A stretch of 64,000 nt of DNA, taken from the NCBI GenBank assembly GCA_963733035.1, contig CAVTBU010000005.1, forward strand, positions 992,001 to 1,056,000, written 5' to 3'. Made by a program: the position numbers and the translations under genes. Below, in pieces: positions 1 through 63,971 of the stretch. Numbering within the stretch: position 1 is the stretch's first letter; each line of letters starts with the position of its first letter. A model generated the notes under the pieces. That model was not told the DNA's origin. It ran no database searches and saw nothing but the letters and a program-made list of their open reading frames with translations. This DNA comes from Pirellulales bacterium (lineage in GTDB: Bacteria; Planctomycetota; Planctomycetia; Pirellulales; PALSA-1355).

Positions 1-773
1 GCGCTACGGTGGCGTGCAGGCCGAACAGGTTCGCGACCTCGTCTTCGGTGCGATTTTTACCCGTGGCATAGATGACCTCAAATACACAGCTCTGTTCGTG
101 GGCGGTTCGGACGTCGCAGCTGGCGAAGAGCTATTGTCAAAGATCAAGAAAACGTTCTTCGGGCCAATGCGTGTCTCGGTAATGCTTGACTCTAATGGGG
201 CCAATACGACCGCCGCGGCTGCTGTGTTGAGTGCCGCACGGCATTGCCGGCTGCAAGGCGCTGAAGCTGTCGTGCTCGCGGCCACGGGGCCGGTAGGATC
301 CCGCGTCGTGCGACTGCTGGCGATGGAAGGCACCCGTGTGCGGGTTGCATCTCGGAACAGGGCACGCGCCGAGGCGGTCTGCCAAGCCGTTTTGGAACAA
401 ACTCCCGATGCCGAATTGAGACCTCTGGAACTACGCTCGGCCGATGCGGCAATCGAACCGTTGGCAGATGCTCAAATCGTCATTGCGGCCGTGCGCGCCA
501 GGTGTGGAATTGGCCACTATCTCGGCACGGTCGCAAAGCAAAACTCTGGAAGTCGCGATTGATCTAAGCGCCGTGCCACCTCTGGGACTTGCTGGTGTCG
601 AGGTCATGGACCGTGCTGTTGAGCGTGAGGGGATGACATGCTACGGCGCAATCGGAGTCGGTGGCACGAAAATGAAAATTCACAAAGCGGCGATTCGCGA
701 GCTGTTTGCTGATCACGATCGCGTGCTCGACGCCGAGGAAATCTATCGTCTAGGGCAGCAGATCGGCATCTGA
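1..773 (+). CDS. NAD(P)-dependent methylene-tetrahydromethanopterin dehydrogenase (Mtd family), 5'-truncated by window, apparent frameshift near 490
   Basis: Motifs GAIFTRG, DSNGANTTAAAAV and Rossmann LAATGPVG in ORF 14..562. The C-terminal IDLSAVPPLG...GAIGVGGTKMKIHK continues in another frame (ORF 444..773). Confidence 0.85.
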
Positions 774-56975: not shown

Positions 56976-57977
56976 TCAATCCGCCAACGTCATGCCCGTA
57001 CGCTTACGAATTGGGGGCGCAGGGCATTTGCGTAAATAGTCGAGTATCTCGGAGACTTGGGCGGTAGCCAGAGCCAGGCAGCTATCGGCTCCACCGTAGT
57101 ACATGCGGATGGCGCCACTCGTTTTGTCCAGAATCCAACCGCATGGAAAAACCACGCCGTTGACATCCCCCTGGCGTTCGTACGGCATTTCCGGTGCAAA
57201 GATCCATTCGTCACTGCGCCGCAAAACCCGACACGGATCTTCCAGATCGAGCAATGCAAGTCCCAAGCGATAAAGGCAACCACCCGCAGTCACGCGTACA
57301 CCGTGATACAAGATGAGCCAGCCTTCAGGCGTCTCCAAGGGCGGAGGGCTGAGGCCAATTTTGTTGGCATCCCACCATGCCCCACGCCGCGCATGCAACA
57401 GAATGTGGTGATCACCCCAATGCGTAAGATCCGGCGAAAACGAAATCCACATGTGAGCGCCAAGCCCGGCAGACACGGGGCGATGGATCATTGCGTAGCG
57501 GTTGCCGAAGCGGCGGGGAAAGATCGCGGCATCCTTGTCGTCTGGTGGCATGACCGGGCCAAGTCGCGCGAAATGAACAAAATCTTTTGTCGCAGCCAAT
57601 GACACCAGCGGACCGCTGGTTGAATACGCCGTGTAGGCGATGATCCACTCGTTGCGTTCTTCAATCCAGGTTACACGGGGATCCTCAACGCCCCAGGCTT
57701 CTTCGGGAAAGTCAGCGGGGTCGGCTGCGAAACTCGGCCTCGAATCAATTTGCCAGTTGCCAATTCCGTCGTTACTTCGGGCAACGCAAAGATGCGAATG
57801 GCCTCGCCGGTCTTCGACTCGTACCAGTAGAATCGTTTCGTCGCCCGACTGACATGCGCCGGCATTAAAAATCGAATGCGCTGGATAAGGCCAATCGTGG
57901 GCCGTGAGGATTGGGTTCGTGGAATTGCGATGGAACAGGTCAACGTGCAAATTGGCGACCGTCGATTCTCGACGCAT
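56976..57977 (-). CDS. GH130-family glycosidase/mannoside phosphorylase
   Basis: NPIL, IFNAGA, GVEDPR, DKDA, YHGV, VVFPCG, YYGGAD. Confidence 0.88.
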   Translation of the reverse strand: MRRESTVANLHVDLFHRNSTNPILTAHDWPYPAHSIFNAGACQSGDETILLVRVEDRRGHSHLCVARSNDGIGNWQIDSRPSFAADPADFPEEAWGVEDPRVTWIEERNEWIIAYTAYSTSGPLVSLAATKDFVHFARLGPVMPPDDKDAAIFPRRFGNRYAMIHRPVSAGLGAHMWISFSPDLTHWGDHHILLHARRGAWWDANKIGLSPPPLETPEGWLILYHGVRVTAGGCLYRLGLALLDLEDPCRVLRRSDEWIFAPEMPYERQGDVNGVVFPCGWILDKTSGAIRMYYGGADSCLALATAQVSEILDYLRKCPAPPIRKRTGMTLAD

Positions 57978-58021: not shown

Positions 58022-59098
58022 TTATCCGTTCCCGACGGCAGCTTGCGGGCTACCATCTAGGACGCGCTGAAGATTGCAGTTGTGGACTTCGGTCCACAAG
58101 TAAGCGAGTGTCGATTCGGCACCTTGGTTTCGGTTGATGCCCGACGCGTGCAGACCATCGCAACAGGCTCCCCGGGGAGCATCGACCAGAGGCTTTCGCA
58201 AGCTATTCTGGCCGTGGAACCAGCCATGTGCGCGGCGAAAGGTGGACAAGTACTTCTCTTCTCGTTGGCGTCCGAAAGCGGTTAGCGCCGCTTCGGCCAT
58301 CGTGGACGCCTCGACCGGCTGTTGATCGTGCAAGGCTTTGCTTTGCTTAGGGGCGTGCCATCCCCCATTGCCAATTGGCCAAAACACGCCTTCGGCTGTT
58401 GTTTCGCGGTCGAGGAACGAAAACGCAGCCTCTGCTACGGCAAAAAAGGGCTCCGTTGGCCAGCGTTGGGACGCGGCGAACAGCGCATGCGGTAATACGG
58501 CATTGGCGTAGGTCATGCGAGGCTCGAACCACAACCAGTCCGCTGACCGACATCGCTCGAAGCACTCGACCAGTTGCCGAGCCGCGTACCAAGCAATGTT
58601 TTCCAGTGATGCGGCATCGGCCACTTCGGATCGGCAAAGATGATCCCACGCCAGCACGATATACGCCTGGGCCCGCGGGCTGCGCACGTCGATGAGCGTA
58701 GGCACAAGCGAGCCGATAAGTTCCCGAGCCAACCGCCGATGATCGTCTGGCAATTTACTGCCGAGTACTTCGGCTAACGCAAGGACGGCTTGTCCTTGGC
58801 AGTCGTCGCAGCCTTTTGCGTCCAGCCAACTACGTTGATAACTGAGGTAATTATGAAAGCCTCCGTCGGCACACTGCGCAAATTGCAAGAATCCCAGATA
58901 ACGTGTCACGCGTTCAAGCATTCTTGGGTCGGGGCGTTCCGAGCACAATTGAGCACAAAGCCGCAAAGCGCGGGCGTTATCGTCGGTCGTATAGCCGCTC
59001 TCGCGCCGCGGAATGCTGTAGATCGCATGCTGAATCAAGCCAGTCGAGTCCGTCATGCGGTCCAAATGATCCAGAACGACCGGATTGTGACGATGCAC
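58022..59098 (-). CDS. (alpha/alpha)6-like protein usually found fused to or beside GT4 glycosyltransferases
   Basis: TDSTGLIQHA, GYTTDDNARAL, WFE..MTYANA, DQQPVEA, NQGAESTLA; GTG start overlaps the upstream stop. Confidence 0.8.
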   Translation of the reverse strand: MHRHNPVVLDHLDRMTDSTGLIQHAIYSIPRRESGYTTDDNARALRLCAQLCSERPDPRMLERVTRYLGFLQFAQCADGGFHNYLSYQRSWLDAKGCDDCQGQAVLALAEVLGSKLPDDHRRLARELIGSLVPTLIDVRSPRAQAYIVLAWDHLCRSEVADAASLENIAWYAARQLVECFERCRSADWLWFEPRMTYANAVLPHALFAASQRWPTEPFFAVAEAAFSFLDRETTAEGVFWPIGNGGWHAPKQSKALHDQQPVEASTMAEAALTAFGRQREEKYLSTFRRAHGWFHGQNSLRKPLVDAPRGACCDGLHASGINRNQGAESTLAYLWTEVHNCNLQRVLDGSPQAAVGNG

Positions 59099-60333
59099 TA
59101 CAAGCCCCTTTGCAAAGATCGTTCATAGGGTTTCAGCTCACTCGACGCGGCGACGATCTTCCGATGGAGTCGCGTGATGTTGGCCCGTCGGGTCGATACG
59201 ATTCGGCCGAAGAGCTTTAAATACTTGTGTCCCACATTGTTCCAATGCATCGGACGGGAATACTCGTAGGCCCTGCGACGCGTCTCGAATTGAAACTTGC
59301 TATCGCCAAGGAATCGCAGTGCCGCATCGGCGAGGCCATCGCTCTGTTCAAATGGCGTTAGCAGGCCCCGACCGTCGGCCAGGACTTCTTGAGCATACAG
59401 ATAGGGAGTGCTGACGACTGCCAGCCCCGCCGACAGGGCATACGCCAATGTGCCGCTGGCAATCTGATCTTTTCCGGGATACGGAGTAACGTAGACATCG
59501 CAGGCTTGCAAGTATGCCAGCAGATCGGCCAAGCAAAGAAACTGATTTACGAAACGTACATGTTCGCCCACGCCCAGGCTTTGGGCCATGGCCGCCAGAC
59601 TTTCGCGATAGACCTCGCCCTCCTGACGTTTGACCAGCGGATGAGTGGCGCCGACGATCAGATATATCGCGTCTGGGTAGGCGGCCACGATGCGGGGCAT
59701 GGCTTGGATCATGTACTCCAGGCCCTTTCCTCGATTGATGAGGCCGAACGTGCAGATGACACGCTTCCCCGCCAACCCAATCCGCGCCTTGTGCAATTCA
59801 TCGCGATCAAAGGGAACTTCCGGCACGCCATGGGGAATCACCCGAATTCGGCGACTAGAGACGGCGTACACGCTGCGCAAGAGTTTCGCGGCAATCTCTG
59901 TCATGACCACCAAGCCCTGACTGTGCGCGGCGATCCGCTGGATCACGCGGCGCGGTAGCGGAGCGGGTTCGGTCATCAACGTATGAAAGGTCGTTACGAT
60001 GGGCTTGTGACATGCTTGTACGAACTGCAGTACGTCCTTTCCCCACTCGCCCGGGTAAAGTCCGAACTCATGTTGCAGGCTTACTACGTCGCAAGGGCCG
60101 TCGTTGGCCATTTCGGCAGCTATTCGGTAGGCGCCTCGCCGCGAGTTCTCTATGACGTGCACCACGCGAGGATCGTGCAGTTGAACCGGCCCCATCTTGC
60201 GGATCGCCGCGACCGACGAAATGTCGGAACCGGCTGCCAGGTCCACAGCGTCAGCCGAATCCCTGGTAAACGTGGCCAGCCCGCATTCCTCTGGCGGGTA
60301 GGTCGAAACAAACAGCGGTCGGACGATTTCCAT
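59098..60333 (-). CDS. glycosyltransferase family 4
   Basis: STYPP..CGLATFT, QHEFGLY, IPHG, TFGL..GKG, SGTLAYA, VVSTPY. Confidence 0.9.
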
Positions 60334-60336
60334 CAG

Positions 60337-60540
60337 TCACCTTCGGTTATTGGTTCCGTGTGTCGAGAATCCTGTGAAGACTTCATCGAGCCCTTGCCGT
60401 CTTTTTTTGCAGTCGCGGCCATCGCCCTCGGTGACGCGTGGCCGGCGCTCCTTTTCCCCACTGCCGTCCGAAGGGAACAGCAATCCGTGCCAAACGCCGA
60501 CGACGACCACAGCAACCGCGAGCACCAGCAGCACTTCCAT
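60337..60540 (-). CDS. small membrane-anchored hypothetical protein
   Basis: N-terminal hydrophobic helix; ends 3 nt before the GT4 start. Confidence 0.45.
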   Translation of the reverse strand: MEVLLVLAVAVVVVGVWHGLLFPSDGSGEKERRPRVTEGDGRDCKKRRQGLDEVFTGFSTHGTNNRR

Positions 60541-60627
60541 AAATGCGCCTGTCGTGGTTGGCCGAGTTTTCTTGAGCGAGCGGTACAGAGAAACTCCCCT
60601 CGGGCACGCCGCCGAGCGTGGCCGCTC

Positions 60628-60774
60628 TTAGGTCAGTCGGCGACCTTGAAACACGTTAACGAGCAGCACCACAAGCGCGACTACTAGCAGAGCGTGAATG
60701 AGTCCGCCCCCAACTCCGAAGCCGAACCCCAAGGCCCACAACAGCAGTACGATTAACAAGACGGTCCACAACAT
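60628..60774 (-). CDS. 48-aa membrane protein, lmo0937/DUF5670-like
   Basis: Translated by hand: MLWTVLLIVLLLWALGFGFGVGGGLIHALLVVALVVLLVNVFQGRRLT; GAGGTG RBS; below the ORF-track size cutoff. Confidence 0.85.
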   Translation of the reverse strand: MLWTVLLIVLLLWALGFGFGVGGGLIHALLVVALVVLLVNVFQGRRLT

Positions 60775-60880
60775 ACGTCACCTCAGCGTGTAAAATTTCT
60801 CATTCGATCAAGCAAATATGGTCTGTGGGGAGACATGGCGATGCGCTCCGGCAGCACTCTGTCCGCCTCTAATTTTTCGC

Positions 60881-61156
60881 TTAAGATGGCATGATCATCT
60901 CAATGGAGTTAGTCCCAGCATCGCCGCCATGCGTCACCGATGCGGCCGCATCGTGATTCAACGGATTCAATTGGCCGCCGTTGTGAATTCGTTCCCAGAC
61001 CTCCAGGCGATGGACCGGAATGTCGGGATCAACGTCGAATCCCAGTTTCACCTTCTCGCCGCGAATCTCGAGCACGGTAACTTTCAGCATGCGCTGAACG
61101 CCGTCGGCGCCTCCAACCACGACCGACTCCTTGTTCCTTCTCGTCAGCACTAGCAT
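60881..61156 (-). CDS. csrA: carbon storage regulator CsrA-family RNA-binding protein
   Basis: MLVLTRR..ESVVVG..VTVLEI.G.KVKLGF....IPVHR.EV. Confidence 0.88.
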   Translation of the reverse strand: MLVLTRRNKESVVVGGADGVQRMLKVTVLEIRGEKVKLGFDVDPDIPVHRLEVWERIHNGGQLNPLNHDAAASVTHGGDAGTNSIEMIMPS

Positions 61157-61179
61157 CGTCGCACCTTCCTTTCTCATGC

Positions 61180-61593
61180 CTACCTCTGCGTTCCATTTCC
61201 GCTCCAGGTTCCGGCAGTCACACTGTCGGTGAGCAGGAACACTTGAACCACCGTTCCGGTAGTAAACGCCTTCACGACGGTACCCGACGTCGGTGCGATC
61301 TCGACCCCCGATTCACGCACGTTTACCCCAGTGATTCGCTTGATTTCGTCCCGCAGCGAGTCGGCAGAGTTGTCGAACAGCTGACGGTGAAACTTCTGCA
61401 CCTGGACGGCTCCTTCCGGGGTCTTGGCCAATGCCTGCTCCGCCGGTGACAACGCCCCTTGGAGCGTGATGACCAGCGTATTCTCACTGAACACGACAGT
61501 TACCGACTGGGGCATGATGCCAGTCCGTCGGCGCTCGAAATCACTGGCTGCCAAGGCGACTTCCTTCGCCATCGCCGAACTGGAATTATCCAT
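61180..61593 (-). CDS. DUF2294 / MpsC-family protein
   Basis: TG..PQSVTV....TLVITL.GALSPAEQAL...L..EIKRITGV.V; AAAGGAG RBS. Confidence 0.75.
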   Translation of the reverse strand: MDNSSSAMAKEVALAASDFERRRTGIMPQSVTVVFSENTLVITLQGALSPAEQALAKTPEGAVQVQKFHRQLFDNSADSLRDEIKRITGVNVRESGVEIAPTSGTVVKAFTTGTVVQVFLLTDSVTAGTWSGNGTQR

Positions 61594-61631
61594 TGGGTCG
61601 CTCCTTTCAGTTGTGCCCGCGGCAAGCAACC

Positions 61632-61745
61632 GAAACAAAAAAAGCCGACGTGGTGAAACACCCATAGGTGTCCCAACACGTCGGCTTACTCGTTAACGAG
61701 CCGCCCGGCATCGCCGGGCTGCCCTTTAGTTAGTCGTCCGATAAA
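61632..61745 (-). promoter_or_regulatory. conserved leader RNA with overlapping intrinsic terminator, copy 1
   Basis: Near-identical to 62872-62985; AAGCCGACGUG...CACGUCGGC-U7 ends ~40 nt upstream of the DUF2294 start. Confidence 0.85.
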
Positions 61746-61793
61746 CTCAAGAATACGCGGAACCGAATCAGAATGGCCTTCACGAACACCTTA

Positions 61794-61825
61794 ATCATAG
61801 TGTTTGTACCCTAGAAAGCAAACGA
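61794..61825 (-). promoter_or_regulatory. sigma70-like promoter for leader copy 1
   Basis: tcgtTTGCTT-N16-TATGAT. Confidence 0.6.
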
Positions 61826-61865
61826 GAGCCTGTTCCGCCTGCATTTCCGCCCGGAAGGATTTCCA

Positions 61866-62054
61866 TTAGTCCTCCTTGATCGACTTGTCCATGGCCTTGA
61901 GGCATTTGTCGCACATTGGTCCGAGTGATTCTGCTACCACCACTAGCGTTTCTGGAAGCGCGCCATGATGGTGCAGCAGATGCTTGAGTCGTGGAAGCCA
62001 CTGTGTAGCCTCCTGGCCAATCATCAAGGACCGGCAGGTTTTGCAAATTTGCAT
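61866..62054 (-). CDS. small putative Zn-binding protein
   Basis: CKTC...CDKC pairs, 62 aa. Confidence 0.45.
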   Translation of the reverse strand: MQICKTCRSLMIGQEATQWLPRLKHLLHHHGALPETLVVVAESLGPMCDKCLKAMDKSIKED

Positions 62055-62072
62055 ACGATCAACAGCTTTTTT

Positions 62073-62306
62073 CTAGGTCGCCAACTGATCGCGAGCTCGG
62101 CCCTGACGGTCGAAACGGGTGCCGCACTTGGGGCAAGTCCAATCGCCCAGAACGAGTTCCGCGGATTGGTTGGACAAGCGAATCACGGGGAGTCCGCCGC
62201 CGCACTCACGGCAAGTCTTCCGACCCATCCCTGTCGAAAAAAAGGCGATCAGCGCAAACCCAACAAACACGGCCAGCGTTATGGTCCCAATCAAAAGAAT
62301 TTGCAT
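62073..62306 (-). CDS. small membrane protein with zinc ribbon
   Basis: N-terminal TM helix; CREC...WTCPKCG.RFDRQG; abuts the upstream stop. Confidence 0.7.
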   Translation of the reverse strand: MQILLIGTITLAVFVGFALIAFFSTGMGRKTCRECGGGLPVIRLSNQSAELVLGDWTCPKCGTRFDRQGRARDQLAT

Positions 62307-62828
62307 CTACAGACTCCCGGGCAATTCGGTCCTAGTTTCAAGCAATGGTTGTCGGTGGGAAGTGGCTTCATCGGTAACGACGCTTAAGCGCGACGTTCTC
62401 AAATAGGGAGCGTCGTCGAGAGCGAATTCCACCGCAACGCTCCGCTCCAATTGATCGAATCGACGATTTGTCAGCGCTGACGCATCAAAGAAGACGTCGC
62501 CGGCGGGCGTTCGAATATAGCCGTATCCCACGGTGTTGTGGCTGGGAACCAAATGCGTCGACGGAACATCCGTCCCGCAGGAAAGGAATTTCAGTTGACT
62601 AATCACACCCCGCACCAACCCCGGCGGCTGAGGACGGGAAGTCTGAGCGAGAGTCGCAGGTGTTACTACTCGAATTCCATTTCTTTTGTCGCCGATCAAT
62701 TCGTTTTCCATTCCAGCCTGTCCATACGATTCGCATTGCCCGCCATCGTCACACCAACGATCCTTTGCGGACGCTTCGGAGCCAAGCAACGAATTCTGAC
62801 TGCTCGACGGCGTGTTGATAGATTTCAT
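62307..62828 (-). CDS. protein with C-terminal cold-shock-domain-like OB fold
   Basis: GYGYI..PAGDVFFDASAL...FDQL....VEF (RNP1/RNP2-like); start uncertain. Confidence 0.55.
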   Translation of the reverse strand: MKSINTPSSSQNSLLGSEASAKDRWCDDGGQCESYGQAGMENELIGDKRNGIRVVTPATLAQTSRPQPPGLVRGVISQLKFLSCGTDVPSTHLVPSHNTVGYGYIRTPAGDVFFDASALTNRRFDQLERSVAVEFALDDAPYLRTSRLSVVTDEATSHRQPLLETRTELPGSL

Positions 62829-62871
62829 GACGCATACCACCAAAGGATCACGCCGGTTCCCAATTTGACGA

Positions 62872-62985
62872 GAAACAAAAAAGCCGACGCGGTGGTATAC
62901 CCCGAGGTACATCACCGCGTCGGCTTACTCGTCAACGGGCCGCCCGCTGGCAACTGGGCTGCCCTTCAGTTAGTCATCCGACGAT
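62872..62985 (-). promoter_or_regulatory. conserved leader RNA with overlapping intrinsic terminator, copy 2
   Basis: Near-identical to 61632-61745; AAGCCGACGCGGUG...CACCGCGUCGGC-U6. Confidence 0.85.
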
Positions 62986-63040
62986 TCAAAAACCCGCTGC
63001 GGCCAGATCGGAACTGATTATCCGCGCTAGCTCACCCCTA

Positions 63041-63072
63041 AGTTTAACCTTCCCATGGTGGAAAGCAAACGA
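63041..63072 (-). promoter_or_regulatory. sigma70-like promoter for leader copy 2
   Basis: tcgtTTGCTT-N16-TAAACT. Confidence 0.6.
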
Positions 63073-63219
63073 CTGCCATCTTGACATCACCTATTTGGCT
63101 GGCATACAGCTTTTCGCCCGCGAGACTGCCAGTGCCTGTTTTCGAGAACAATTTAGAGTTAGAATCGGACAGGCATTCCGGACGAGCCGTCGCCCACGCA
63201 ATGTATCTGTTGAATCACA

Positions 63220-63600
63220 ATGAAAAGTCAAGGAGAAATTGAAGCAGCGATCTGCGCGGGACTGAATCGCTTTGAACAAGAATACATGGGGCGAGGGCCG
63301 AAGCAGATTCACGCACACCTGATTGGCGATTGCCTGATCATTCGGCTGCACGGTGTTTTGACCGCGGCCGAAAAACAATTGGTGAAGACCTTGCCGGCGG
63401 AGAAAGGAAGGGATTTGCTCAAGCAAGTTCGAACACATCTCATCGAAACCGCACGGCCGGTCATGGAGGCGATGGTCGAGGAAGTGACGGGCGTAAAGGT
63501 CGTGAGCTTGCACCACGACATCAGCACGACGACTGCCGAGGAAGTGGTGCTCTTCACGCTGGCGACTGCGCCTGCTTTCCGCGAAACGCGAAAAAAATAG
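63220..63600 (+). CDS. DUF2294 / MpsC-family protein
   Basis: FEQEYMGRGP......L.IRL.GVLTAAEKQL..GRDLLKQVR..TGVKV.SLHHDIST.T.EEV. Confidence 0.85.
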   Translation: MKSQGEIEAAICAGLNRFEQEYMGRGPKQIHAHLIGDCLIIRLHGVLTAAEKQLVKTLPAEKGRDLLKQVRTHLIETARPVMEAMVEEVTGVKVVSLHHDISTTTAEEVVLFTLATAPAFRETRKK

Positions 63601-63620
63601 CTCATTGCCAACGAGCGTAC

Positions 63621-63971
63621 TCAATTGCCAGAGTTGCTCGATTCTTGAGCGCGAAACTGGCCGAGACGCTCCGCCTCGGCCGCTCGCAATTCCGCATGGA
63701 CACGTTGGCAATGGACGTTCGCATGCGTCAGACGGTAGTCCAGCCACTCCTTGTCGACGCTCAGGAACCGCCCCATCGCCTGTTCGCGGTCCATCCAATC
63801 TTGCAGGTAGTTGCGGCGGATCTCCGAGAGATCGGCCAACAACACTTGAACGCTCAAGGTATCCGCGTAGTCAGGATAGAACGTAGCTTGCAACCTACGA
63901 CGAAATGCAAGCAGCGCTTCGGCGTCGGTAATCTGCTCGTCCGCCAAATGCAGATACATTTTGTCATGCAA
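63621..63971 (-). CDS. hypothetical helical protein
   Basis: 116-aa ORF converging on the DUF2294 gene. Confidence 0.45.
   Translation of the reverse strand: MHDKMYLHLADEQITDAEALLAFRRRLQATFYPDYADTLSVQVLLADLSEIRRNYLQDWMDREQAMGRFLSVDKEWLDYRLTHANVHCQRVHAELRAAEAERLGQFRAQESSNSGN

Follow-up and report, generated by a model that had tools for sequence, protein, structure and literature searches.

A structured leader RNA that ends in an intrinsic terminator is found in several copies per genome in Planctomycetota, where it precedes general-stress-type genes and is coupled in the genome to two subfamilies of DUF2294 proteins, type A directly behind it and type B beside it on the opposite strand. We propose, with a probability of roughly 0.4, that type B is a candidate dedicated trans-acting partner of this leader, setting read-through into a stress regulon. 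The window, by which we mean the whole 64,000-nt stretch of Pirellulales DNA that was analysed (C5:992001-1056000), contains two copies of the leader and one gene of each DUF2294 type, arranged as follows.

60881..61156, minus strand: CsrA paralog of 91 aa, with its start 23 nt behind type A (PF02599, E 1.4e-14)
61180..61593, minus strand: type A DUF2294 protein of 137 aa, first gene behind leader 1 (PF10057, E 1.2e-19)
61637..61747, minus strand: leader copy 1, with conserved core, P1 hairpin and intrinsic terminator (covariance model R1, 114.7 bits; alignment A2, row 1)
61794..61821, minus strand: promoter-like hexamers of leader 1, TTGCTT (61821-61816), a 16-nt spacer and TATGAT (61799-61794), putative, from sequence
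61866..62054, minus strand: cysteine-rich protein of 62 aa, found in 4 copies (cluster 27)
62073..62306, minus strand: small membrane protein of 77 aa with a zinc ribbon, found behind the leader in 4 copies (cluster 26)
62307..62828, minus strand: RWxDDGG-motif protein, first gene behind leader 2 (listed ORF 62307-62915; probable start ATG 62828)
62876..62987, minus strand: leader copy 2, with conserved core, P1 hairpin and intrinsic terminator (R1, 102.2 bits; A2, row 2)
63041..63068, minus strand: promoter-like hexamers of leader 2, TTGCTT (63068-63063), a 16-nt spacer and TAAACT (63046-63041), likewise putative
63220..63600, plus strand: type B DUF2294 protein of 126 aa, divergent from leader 2 (PF10057, E 3.1e-36)

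The leader RNA and the genes behind it

Covariance analysis of relatives revealed a covarying leader RNA of about 110 nt whose 3' end is the intrinsic terminator. The repeated leader described in the first-pass annotation is borne out by the scores of both copies against covariance model R1, which was derived from 125 relatives, and the 20-nt core GACTAACTRAAGGGCAGCCC occurs twice within the window and in none of 100 shuffles. Each copy folds into a hairpin followed by a long terminator hairpin with a U-run (copy 1, -57.8 kcal/mol, z -6.9 against shuffles; copy 2, -59.7 kcal/mol, z -5.6). A pattern scan returned at least 133 stretches, which give at least about 145 unique copies, and among the matches listed nearly all copies are held by Planctomycetota MAGs. 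Matches L017, L018, L021 and L022, together with L061 from a Pseudoxanthomonas record, were left out of the leader set as chance matches because the hairpin and terminator architecture was missing; a hairpin with a U-run is present in 139 of 144 leader copies.

The leader consists of an irregular hairpin of about 70 nt with invariant internal loops and a base helix that overlaps an arm of the terminator. Its loop sequences are GACUA, GAAGGGC and ACGAGUAAG. In the RNAalifold consensus of 125 leader copies, compensatory changes were found in 18 of 29 pairs, and the upper P1 helix showed covariation in 5/5 pairs. The 5' segment GUCGGAUGAC carries an invariant GGA within one strand of P0, a GUCGG/CCGAC pairing (A2 columns 9-13 with 78-82) that is paired in 96.5% of cells; as a short helix of 5 bp, P0 shows little covariation, with compensatory changes in 2/5 pairs. 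Across the whole window, the Rfam 15 covariance models gave no match at gathering score, and below threshold solely chance matches to miRNA models, lying over the terminator hairpins. Listings and abstracts of the literature on planctomycete RNA motifs, riboswitches and stress attenuation do not describe the leader. It is a previously undescribed RNA class that has no Rfam family, and this holds for a protein-controlled element and a riboswitch alike.

Promoter-like sequences accompany many of the copies. The pattern TTGNNN-15..18-TANNNT occurs 25-90 nt 5' of the core in 72 of 141 leader copies, compared with a single match in a control placed in downstream genes, 300-430 nt beyond the conserved core. 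In 60300-63700 a consensus scan for promoters and terminators missed the promoter-like hexamers as well as the leader terminators, so both were judged by folds and by conservation across copies.

The gene content behind the leader was established by all-against-all clustering of forward ORFs from 93 leader copies, which superseded simple gene maps in which 43 of the 93 had no called downstream gene. Clustering showed that the same gene families return behind the leader, and that the several copies in a genome precede unrelated genes. General-stress-type genes are found downstream (CsbD, DUF3309, DUF1328, ferritin, YmgE-type and others), and type A is the commonest regulated gene, lying downstream in 30 of 93 copies. 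Behind leader 2, the product of 62307..62828 has a weak match to the cold-shock domain (CSD; E 0.0012, below cut-off), and similar first ORFs occur in loci L007 and L015; the cysteine-rich 62-aa protein has no Pfam match. The leader is a cis-regulatory element in its arrangement, a covarying structured domain and a terminator standing directly 5' of a co-directional gene.

A strong terminator, a conserved sequence and a promoter-like element of its own could also mark a small RNA gene, whose terminated transcript of about 150 nt would act in trans while the downstream genes were expressed independently. We consider this highly improbable: same-strand coding genes follow close behind, gene families recur there, and in 53 of 93 copies no more than 400 nt separate the terminator end from the start of the first recognised gene downstream. 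In the window the terminator is separated from the type A start codon by only 43 nt, which leaves no room for another promoter, and expression must therefore pass through the terminator.

Two DUF2294 subfamilies coupled to the leader

The two DUF2294 genes of the window both exceed the PF10057 (MpsC/DUF2294) cut-off of 23 bits, the minus-strand ORF 61180-61665 with 70.9 bits and type B (63220-63600) with 124.3 bits, and on these scores type B is the more canonical copy. Both had been correctly placed by the first-pass annotation, one as the first gene behind leader 1 and the second, more canonical one as divergent from leader 2. The likely start of type A is the ATG at 61593, which has an AAAGGAG ribosome-binding site ahead of it and follows the leader 1 U-run; type B lies on the other strand, its start 233 nt away from where leader 2 has its 5' end, and is therefore divergent. 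The two had been described simply as paralogs, and both do belong to PF10057, but they are not interchangeable and form separate subfamilies. Among 87 unique DUF2294 segments in the leader loci, type A accounts for every one of the 34 directly behind a leader, and type B for every one of the 29 placed upstream in divergent orientation. A relative of type A scores 71.4 bits with PF10057, and type B is strongly conserved, having relatives with 70–90% identity across Planctomycetota; an SLHHDIST strand is among the features specific to type B. Histidine kinases are recurrent in type A operons. The earlier suggestion that the leader-1 copy regulates itself needs correcting, as that copy is type A, a distinct subfamily that is always the regulated gene; any 'autoregulation' would therefore be feedback by a paralog and not by the regulator itself.

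To quantify the coupling, we picked 40 type B genes by protein similarity alone and scored a full leader as one of at least 77.7 bits within 1.5 kb. Such a leader was close to 33 of the 40 genes and divergent in 33 of these 33, with its 5' end about 195–500 nt from the type B start codon; 7 genes had no leader close by, and in none of the 40 loci did a leader lie directly 5' of type B on its own strand. Viewed from the leader, the motif is not common in genomes that lack DUF2294, as the first-pass annotation had required of a cognate pair: 47 of 50 leader-holding genomes carry a DUF2294 gene and 46 carry a close type B (E 1.8e-41 or better), leaving 4 MAGs of the 50 without one. In a phylum sample of 151 genomes, type B of at least 59% identity was found in 4 of 7 leader-positive genomes (G000, G403, G530 and G525) and in 0 of 144 leader-negative ones, and G530 and G525 have the order type B, leader, type A seen in the window. 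Related genomes are not independent, so these co-occurrence counts overstate the statistical weight. The results support a tight functional tie between the leader and DUF2294, above all its divergent copy, and type B shows both the linkage of a regulator gene to its RNA target and the co-occurrence with it that are seen for attenuation proteins.

Other observations fit a riboswitch of a new class, sensing a small molecule or ion that serves as a stress metabolite or second messenger, with DUF2294 as a regulon member or neighbour and not the regulator. We regard this as a serious if tentative alternative, and as part of it the DUF2294 proteins might bind or handle the same ligand as the leader. 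An irregular hairpin with invariant loops and a base helix overlapping a terminator arm is typical riboswitch architecture, the conservation of the loops fits a small-molecule aptamer equally well, and the many copies per genome stand ahead of unrelated genes, among which type A may simply be the commonest. In the phylum sample, a strong leader also occurs in two genomes that lack a close type B: G455 (89% complete) has no PF10057 match, and G444 (88% complete) has as its DUF2294 only a homologue of 46% identity on another contig. Weak structural neighbours of type B, described below, are ligand-binding domains. A riboswitch would leave unexplained, however, why type B, which is never downstream, sits divergently beside the leader in 33 of 40 cases, and why close type B is confined to the leader-positive genomes of the phylum sample. 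For 42 of 93 leader copies, the locus retrieved (up to 5 kb per side) contains no DUF2294, which is compatible with a trans-acting factor and also with a riboswitch.

Coupling to leaders may extend beyond this motif. Among 11 loci of leader-negative genomes with a more distant DUF2294 gene (39–50% identity), 6 have behind that gene a leader of another kind, which also bears a terminator. A second leader variant precedes a DUF2294 gene, and also genes that read as GTP-type PEP carboxykinase; a rigid pattern for this variant recovered 2 of the 6 known examples in the 151-genome sample, together with 3 probable chance matches.

A possible mechanism and its alternatives

In the mechanism that we propose for type B, a module conserved across Planctomycetota would consist of the leader, a divergent type B gene and leader-controlled output genes. 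The leader, as an RNA of about 150 nt, would be constitutively promoted and end at the intrinsic terminator. The recognition sites of type B, which would convey a putative signal, would be the invariant internal loops GAUGACUAG..GAAGGGC and GCCCGUURACGAGUAAG, and binding of type B, with a direction of effect that we can only postulate, would select between pairing of the 5' GUCGG with CCGAC and formation of the terminator. The first pairing, P0, would serve as an antiterminator by taking up the 5' arm of the terminator, and the choice between the two would set read-through into general-stress genes. Type A, with the CsrA paralog after it, often comes first among the output genes, and may be an induced paralog that gives feedback.

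The first-pass annotation had suggested that the DUF2294 proteins are cognate regulators of the leader, acting as sensors or as RNA-binding antiterminators. The genomic tie sustains the first part of this idea and does not extend to binding or antitermination by the protein; the antiterminator claim gains no support from the predicted fold, which lacks a clear relative. The AF2 model of type B has a pLDDT of 94.8. Foldseek returned no match to it at E ≤0.001, a VIA structure search gave a best Z of 6.6, where the tool's meaningful level is 8, phmmer found no match among PDB sequences, and a look-up in the ESM Atlas gave no usable match. The weak matches that recur are Bet3/TRAPP, V4R, PoxR sensor and H-NOX domains, which are ligand-binding and not nucleic-acid-binding folds. 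TRAP, PyrR, HutP and LicT are absent from the matches listed, and a relationship to them is still compatible with this result.

A divergent layout of regulator and target is classic for DNA-binding regulators. It is therefore worth considering that type B acts by a route other than RNA, either on the DNA of a shared promoter or through a sigma, anti-sigma or kinase partner, with the leader forming a separate layer. The fairly constant gap of type B to the leader, the conserved TTGCTT-type -35 element common to the copies, and the recurrence of histidine kinases in type A operons would all fit. This is nevertheless unlikely, given that Pfam, Foldseek and VIA detected no helix-turn-helix or other DNA-binding fold in type B, and that, between type B and its targets, strong conservation is confined to the transcribed leader.

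The CsrA paralog offers another candidate for leader binding. It scores 54.2 bits with PF02599 (cut-off 27) and keeps the N-terminal MLVLTR and the VHR motifs, which are the RNA-binding motifs of CsrA; in an alignment of 13 sequences of its subfamily R6, E10 and K25 are invariant and V48, H49 and R50 nearly so. FliW is a protein antagonist of CsrA, and it is conceivable, at quite low probability, that the paralog binds the invariant GGAUG at the 5' end, over the P0 strand, and thereby controls termination, while DUF2294 modulates CsrA in a FliW-like manner. The position of the invariant GGA inside P0 would suit such binding; in addition, 13 of 93 leader copies have a member of this distinct CsrA subfamily behind type A, and the third DUF2294 gene of the genome, a frameshifted type B with no leader close by, also adjoins a CsrA. 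As with CsrA and FliW, a small protein gene directly adjoins a csrA paralog within one operon. However, DUF2294 is not FliW, only 13 of the 30 copies with type A downstream have the CsrA, which is missing from the modules of many lineages, and the leader has no second conserved GGA. Of the 50 leader-holding genomes, 48 encode CsrA, some with as many as 17 matches, and with so many paralogs its co-occurrence is uninformative. A complex prediction for the CsrA dimer (residues 1-62, A4) with type A (A5) scored 0.00 and 0.00, which says nothing either way.

Relation to known systems and significance

Protein-dependent transcription attenuation is known from TRAP and the trp leader, PyrR and the pyr leaders, HutP and hut, and the LicT/BglG proteins and their RAT elements. 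By analogy with these systems, type B would be a small dedicated protein that chooses between antiterminator and terminator on a conserved leader, its gene adjoining a target and one factor serving several leaders. DUF2294 and the leader motif show no recognised relation to these proteins and RNAs, and the regulon consists of stress genes instead of a single metabolic pathway. The c-di-AMP (ydaO) riboswitch is an example of the terminator-type riboswitches that control stress or osmotic regulons. The leader resembles riboswitches of this kind in its aptamer-like hairpin overlapping the terminator, and in its many copies per genome ahead of varied stress-related genes; it differs in having no Rfam 15 match, and so strict a coupling to a divergently placed gene for a protein would be unusual for a riboswitch. 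The yjbJ motif is a weak riboswitch candidate, reported in PMC11109978 with 40 representatives in the genus Streptococcus only; like the leader it has two hairpins, the second a terminator, and lies upstream of a gene discussed with the CsbD family, but the leader differs from it in distribution and gene association.

Both window proteins, like S. aureus MpsC, score above the PF10057 cut-off. The premise that MpsC accompanies the MpsAB transporter in Firmicutes is weak: according to Fan et al. 2019 (PMC6689103), S. aureus shows no phenotype when mpsC is deleted, MpsAB can do without mpsC, and mpsC and mpsAB lie together in staphylococci only. Whereas S. aureus mpsC lies behind mpsAB, the DabA/MpsB homologues of this genome are elsewhere and the partner is an RNA leader. 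No MpsAB/DabAB gene is found in the window, in agreement with the first-pass annotation; the two DabA (PF10070) genes are far away at C5:2906951 and C6:229534, near none of the three DUF2294 genes of the genome, and we reject an MpsAB link for these DUF2294 genes. Listings and abstracts on DUF2294, MpsC and YbcI/COG5609 do not describe a regulatory role.

The DUF2294 family comprises 1541 clusters at 50% identity that reach E ≤0.001. To our knowledge it is a large family without an assigned function, of which S. aureus MpsC is the sole studied member, and very little is known of gene regulation in Planctomycetota. The presence of one leader ahead of CsbD, DUF3309, DUF1328, ferritin and YmgE-type genes points to a general stress regulon controlled at the RNA level, and its tight coupling to type B offers a concrete, testable protein-RNA pair. 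If type B does act on the leader, control of leader termination could replace the sigma-factor-based stress switches known elsewhere, and type A with the CsrA paralog could constitute an induced feedback arm. A broader and more doubtful possibility is that DUF2294 proteins in general are ligand-sensing, RNA-binding regulators, with type B governing the stress regulon of Planctomycetota and distant members paired with other leaders; regulation linked to leader RNAs would then extend across the whole family, including YbcI of B. subtilis and MpsC of S. aureus. Confirmation of the role of type B would give DUF2294 a function.

Gene order around the two leaders

The first-pass annotation described two DUF2294 (PF10057, MpsC) genes around the leaders, and Pfam matches and gene order bear this out, with type A behind leader 1 and type B divergent from leader 2.

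Features of the window
63220-63600, plus: DUF2294 type B (PF10057, E 3.1e-36)
62987-62876, minus: leader 2, promoter-like hexamers in front
62307-62828, minus: small gene between leader 2 and leader 1
62073-62306, minus: small gene between leader 2 and leader 1
61866-62054, minus: small gene between leader 2 and leader 1
61747-61637, minus: leader 1, promoter-like hexamers in front
61180-61665 as ORF, likely start ATG 61593, minus: DUF2294 type A (PF10057, E 1.2e-19)
60881-61156, minus: CsrA (PF02599, E 1.4e-14), 23 nt past type A
59098-60333, minus: GT4 glycosyltransferase, downstream of CsrA
58022-59098, minus: unnamed 358-aa protein, after GT4
56976-57977, minus: GH130 phosphorylase, downstream of CsrA

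The minus strand thus reads hexamers, leader 2, three small genes, hexamers, leader 1, type A and CsrA, and AAAGGAG precedes the likely type A start. Leader 2 and type B run in opposite directions; given this order, and because type B reads away from leader 2, the original observation was correct as written. CsrA is followed by a small hydrophobic ORF (MLWTVLLIVLLLWALGFG..., 60700-60774, minus), whose relatives are grouped in cluster 11; this cluster matches DUF5670 and recurs behind leaders in eight copies.

The same annotation gave as established that MpsC is encoded with the MpsAB transporter in Firmicutes, a premise that proved weak. According to the available part of Fan et al. 2019 (PMC6689103), mpsC is dispensable, its deletion giving no phenotype and mpsAB alone complementing, and both DabA homologues of the window's genome lie far from every DUF2294 gene, so the name of the family is no guide to function in this case. 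In the literature on DUF2294, MpsC and planctomycete RNA motifs or riboswitches, we found neither the leader nor a regulatory role of DUF2294 described. The yjbJ motif, confined to Streptococcus in the part of its report available (PMC11109978), is a different element from the planctomycete leader.

A widespread leader RNA and the genes behind it

The leader, an element of about 110 nt, is a real, widespread RNA outside Rfam. Its core, GACUAACURAAGGGCAGCCC, occurs twice in the window and never in 100 shuffles, and each window copy closes with a long hairpin and U-run, folding at -57.8 (z -6.9) and -59.7 kcal/mol (z -5.6). At gathering scores Rfam 15 gave no match to it, only chance sub-threshold matches over the terminator hairpins. 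Across an alignment of 125 copies the invariant elements are GG and GAC.A, which were free of the search patterns, and AAGGGC and ACGAGUAAGCC, which the patterns fixed. Compensatory changes occur in 18 of 29 consensus pairs, in both the P1 hairpin and the terminator. The 5-bp helix P0, formed by 5' GUCGG and a CCGAC at the start of the terminator 5' arm, is paired in 96.5% of cells, with a few compensatory changes in only two of its pairs. As read from the sequence, P0 and the terminator are predicted to exclude each other, as in an attenuator or riboswitch.

In 72 of 141 copies, promoter-like hexamers of the form TTGNNN-15..18-TANNNT stand 25-90 nt 5' of the core, compared to one match in a control stretch 300-430 nt past the core, inside downstream genes. 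The most frequent hexamers are TTGCTT and TACAAT, spaced 16 nt apart; a simple consensus scanner run on the window did not call the hexamers of the leaders. Many copies (e.g., L043, L036, L053, L049) carry an extra 5' hairpin of the GGAGCC...GGCUCC type between hexamers and core, variable in sequence and outside our covariance model, R1.

A two-part pattern matched in 19 of 401 same-order genomes, of which 15 were kept; four matches without the hairpin and terminator architecture were discarded as chance. A stricter three-part pattern, with one genome per species, returned at least 133 stretches, and among the matches listed nearly all were in MAGs labelled Pirellulales, Gemmataceae, Isosphaeraceae, Planctomycetaceae, Phycisphaerae or Tepidisphaeraceae. 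One Pseudoxanthomonas match was judged chance. Unique copies number at least about 145 in all, with several per genome in some; the window's genome has just two by R1, and three DUF2294 genes.

For 93 copies with enough flank, forward ORFs up to 2.5 kb downstream were clustered and cluster representatives scanned with Pfam. Type A DUF2294 follows 30 of the 93 copies, CsrA 13, DUF1328 13, histidine kinases (HisKA + HATPase) 12, CsbD 9, and DUF3309 10 and 5 in two clusters. Smaller clusters include DUF5670, DUF3185, holin-X-like, ferritin-like, DUF3568, Transgly_assoc (YmgE type), an RND pump, and the window's 358-aa protein from the region 58022-60333. This set presumably resembles general stress regulons such as sigma-B, RpoS and EcfG. 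It seems highly improbable that the element serves chiefly as a gene for a small RNA. Since the same GT4 and 358-aa genes directly follow the leader in other genomes (L013, L090), the window's GT4, 358-aa and GH130 genes may belong to the leader regulon, perhaps serving synthesis of a sugar-type compatible solute. At L167:3065-5993 (G444) the leader is followed by a pair of large ORFs in different frames, possibly through a frameshift; judged by eye, the pair resembles a glucan phosphorylase or synthase of GH94 type.

Association of type B with the leader

When all loci were translated in six frames and searched with a local HMM, 87 unique DUF2294 segments emerged. All 34 segments just downstream of a leader are type A (roughly MAQQIAQAA..FE..TG..PKSVTVVLS..TLVITLHGALSPAEKALA...TWSG; window 61180-61593), and all 29 divergently upstream are type B (GEIEAAICEG..RFEQEYMGRGPK...GRDLLKQVR...SLHHDIST; window 63220-63600). 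Type B sequences from different orders are 70-90% identical; between A and B the identity is only 20-28%.

The 40 best type B matches in leader-holding genomes were picked by protein similarity alone, with 1.5 kb fetched on each side. A full leader (at least 77.7 bits) stood beside type B in 33 of the 40, and in every one of the 33 a copy is divergent, about 195-500 nt separating its 5' end from the start codon of type B. A leader directly upstream on type B's own strand was seen for none of the 40. Even without filters, the remaining seven gave no score over 9.5 bits. The idea that the DUF2294 pair may act on the leader, as sensors or RNA-binding antiterminators, was not refuted by co-occurrence: 47 of 50 leader-holding MAGs have a DUF2294 match, 46 of them at E 1.8e-41 or better (the exceptions being G561, G568 of only 1.5 Mb, G598, and G582 with a type A-like match only).

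Across 151 evenly sampled Planctomycetota genomes at least 85% complete, R1 matched in seven (six strongly, G511 at only 26.8 bits) and the type B query in 16. Type B matches of at least 59% identity came from G000 (the window's genome), G403, G530 and G525, all leader-positive; the 144 leader-negative genomes gave none. Two leader-positive genomes of this sample are exceptions: G455 (89% complete), which has no PF10057 match, and G444 (88% complete), whose sole homologue is 46% identical and lies at the end of a contig. All these co-occurrence counts are descriptive rather than a formal test because related genomes are not independent. No DUF2294 lies in the fetched locus (up to 5 kb each side) for 42 of the 93 copies, as a trans-acting factor would allow.

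The most economical account, to which we give a probability of roughly 0.4, is a regulatory module with type B as the leader's dedicated protein: a constitutive promoter would drive the leader, the leader would terminate by default or on a signal, and type B would be the regulator encoded next door. A strong rival, somewhat less probable, is that the leader is a small-molecule riboswitch, which would explain the RNA features equally well and account for the two genomes without type B, but leaves unexplained why a never-leader-regulated gene is held divergently beside it.

The third DUF2294 of the window's genome (G000:C8:511095-511587; L170:3095-3587) is a type B gene that adjoins a CsrA paralog and a histidine kinase; being split over two frames with no leader nearby, it is probably a decaying copy. 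With CsrA recurring near DUF2294, a CsrA paralog might bind the GGAUG that is invariant at the 5' end, partnered by a DUF2294 protein, which we regard as quite unlikely. Leader-holding genomes G551-G600 carry up to 17 CsrA and up to 11 type B matches each, sometimes clustered within tens of kb (e.g., G573:C10:2429105-2470526).

Type B fold and a second leader type

Structure prediction gave type B a confident AF2 fold (pLDDT 94.8, pTM 0.86; 72-sequence alignment) of helix, two strands, two helices and two strands, and the proposed RNA-binding role found no known RNA-binding fold there. Phmmer found no match among PDB sequences and Foldseek none at E 0.001 or better, its weak top rows including Bet3/TRAPP subunits, B. 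subtilis YslB and H-NOX domains. In an exhaustive VIA search the best Z was 6.6; entries listed include TRAPP subunits (5.6 and 5.5), the PoxR sensor domain (4.8) and a V4R protein (5.0), and every score stays below what the tool calls meaningful. These outcomes therefore lend no support to a known RNA- or DNA-binding fold. We consider it unlikely that type B acts on DNA or another protein. The model bears a faint resemblance to small-ligand-binding domains, and the HHD of SLHHDIST, invariant and specific to type B, might bind a ligand or a metal.

Eleven loci were fetched from leader-negative Planctomycetota genomes for DUF2294 genes that share 39-50% identity with type B. In six, a different element lies on the same strand, 50-200 nt downstream of the DUF2294 gene, reading GGCAGA..RGGGG, hairpin, CUGC..GAnnAnGCC and terminator with U-run, with its own TTGACA/TATAAT-like promoter.

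Second leader type in fetched loci
L211:1928-2022
L212:1903-1996
L213:1928-2014
L214:1224-1317 (minus)
L215:1955-2042
L218:1964-2059

Behind this element lie another DUF2294 gene in L213 and, by eye, ORFs for a GTP-type PEP carboxykinase in L215 and L218 and an argininosuccinate-synthase-like ORF in L212. If confirmed, this would mean that DUF2294 subfamily and leader type change together; a direct link between protein and leader would then be better supported and would extend beyond stress genes.
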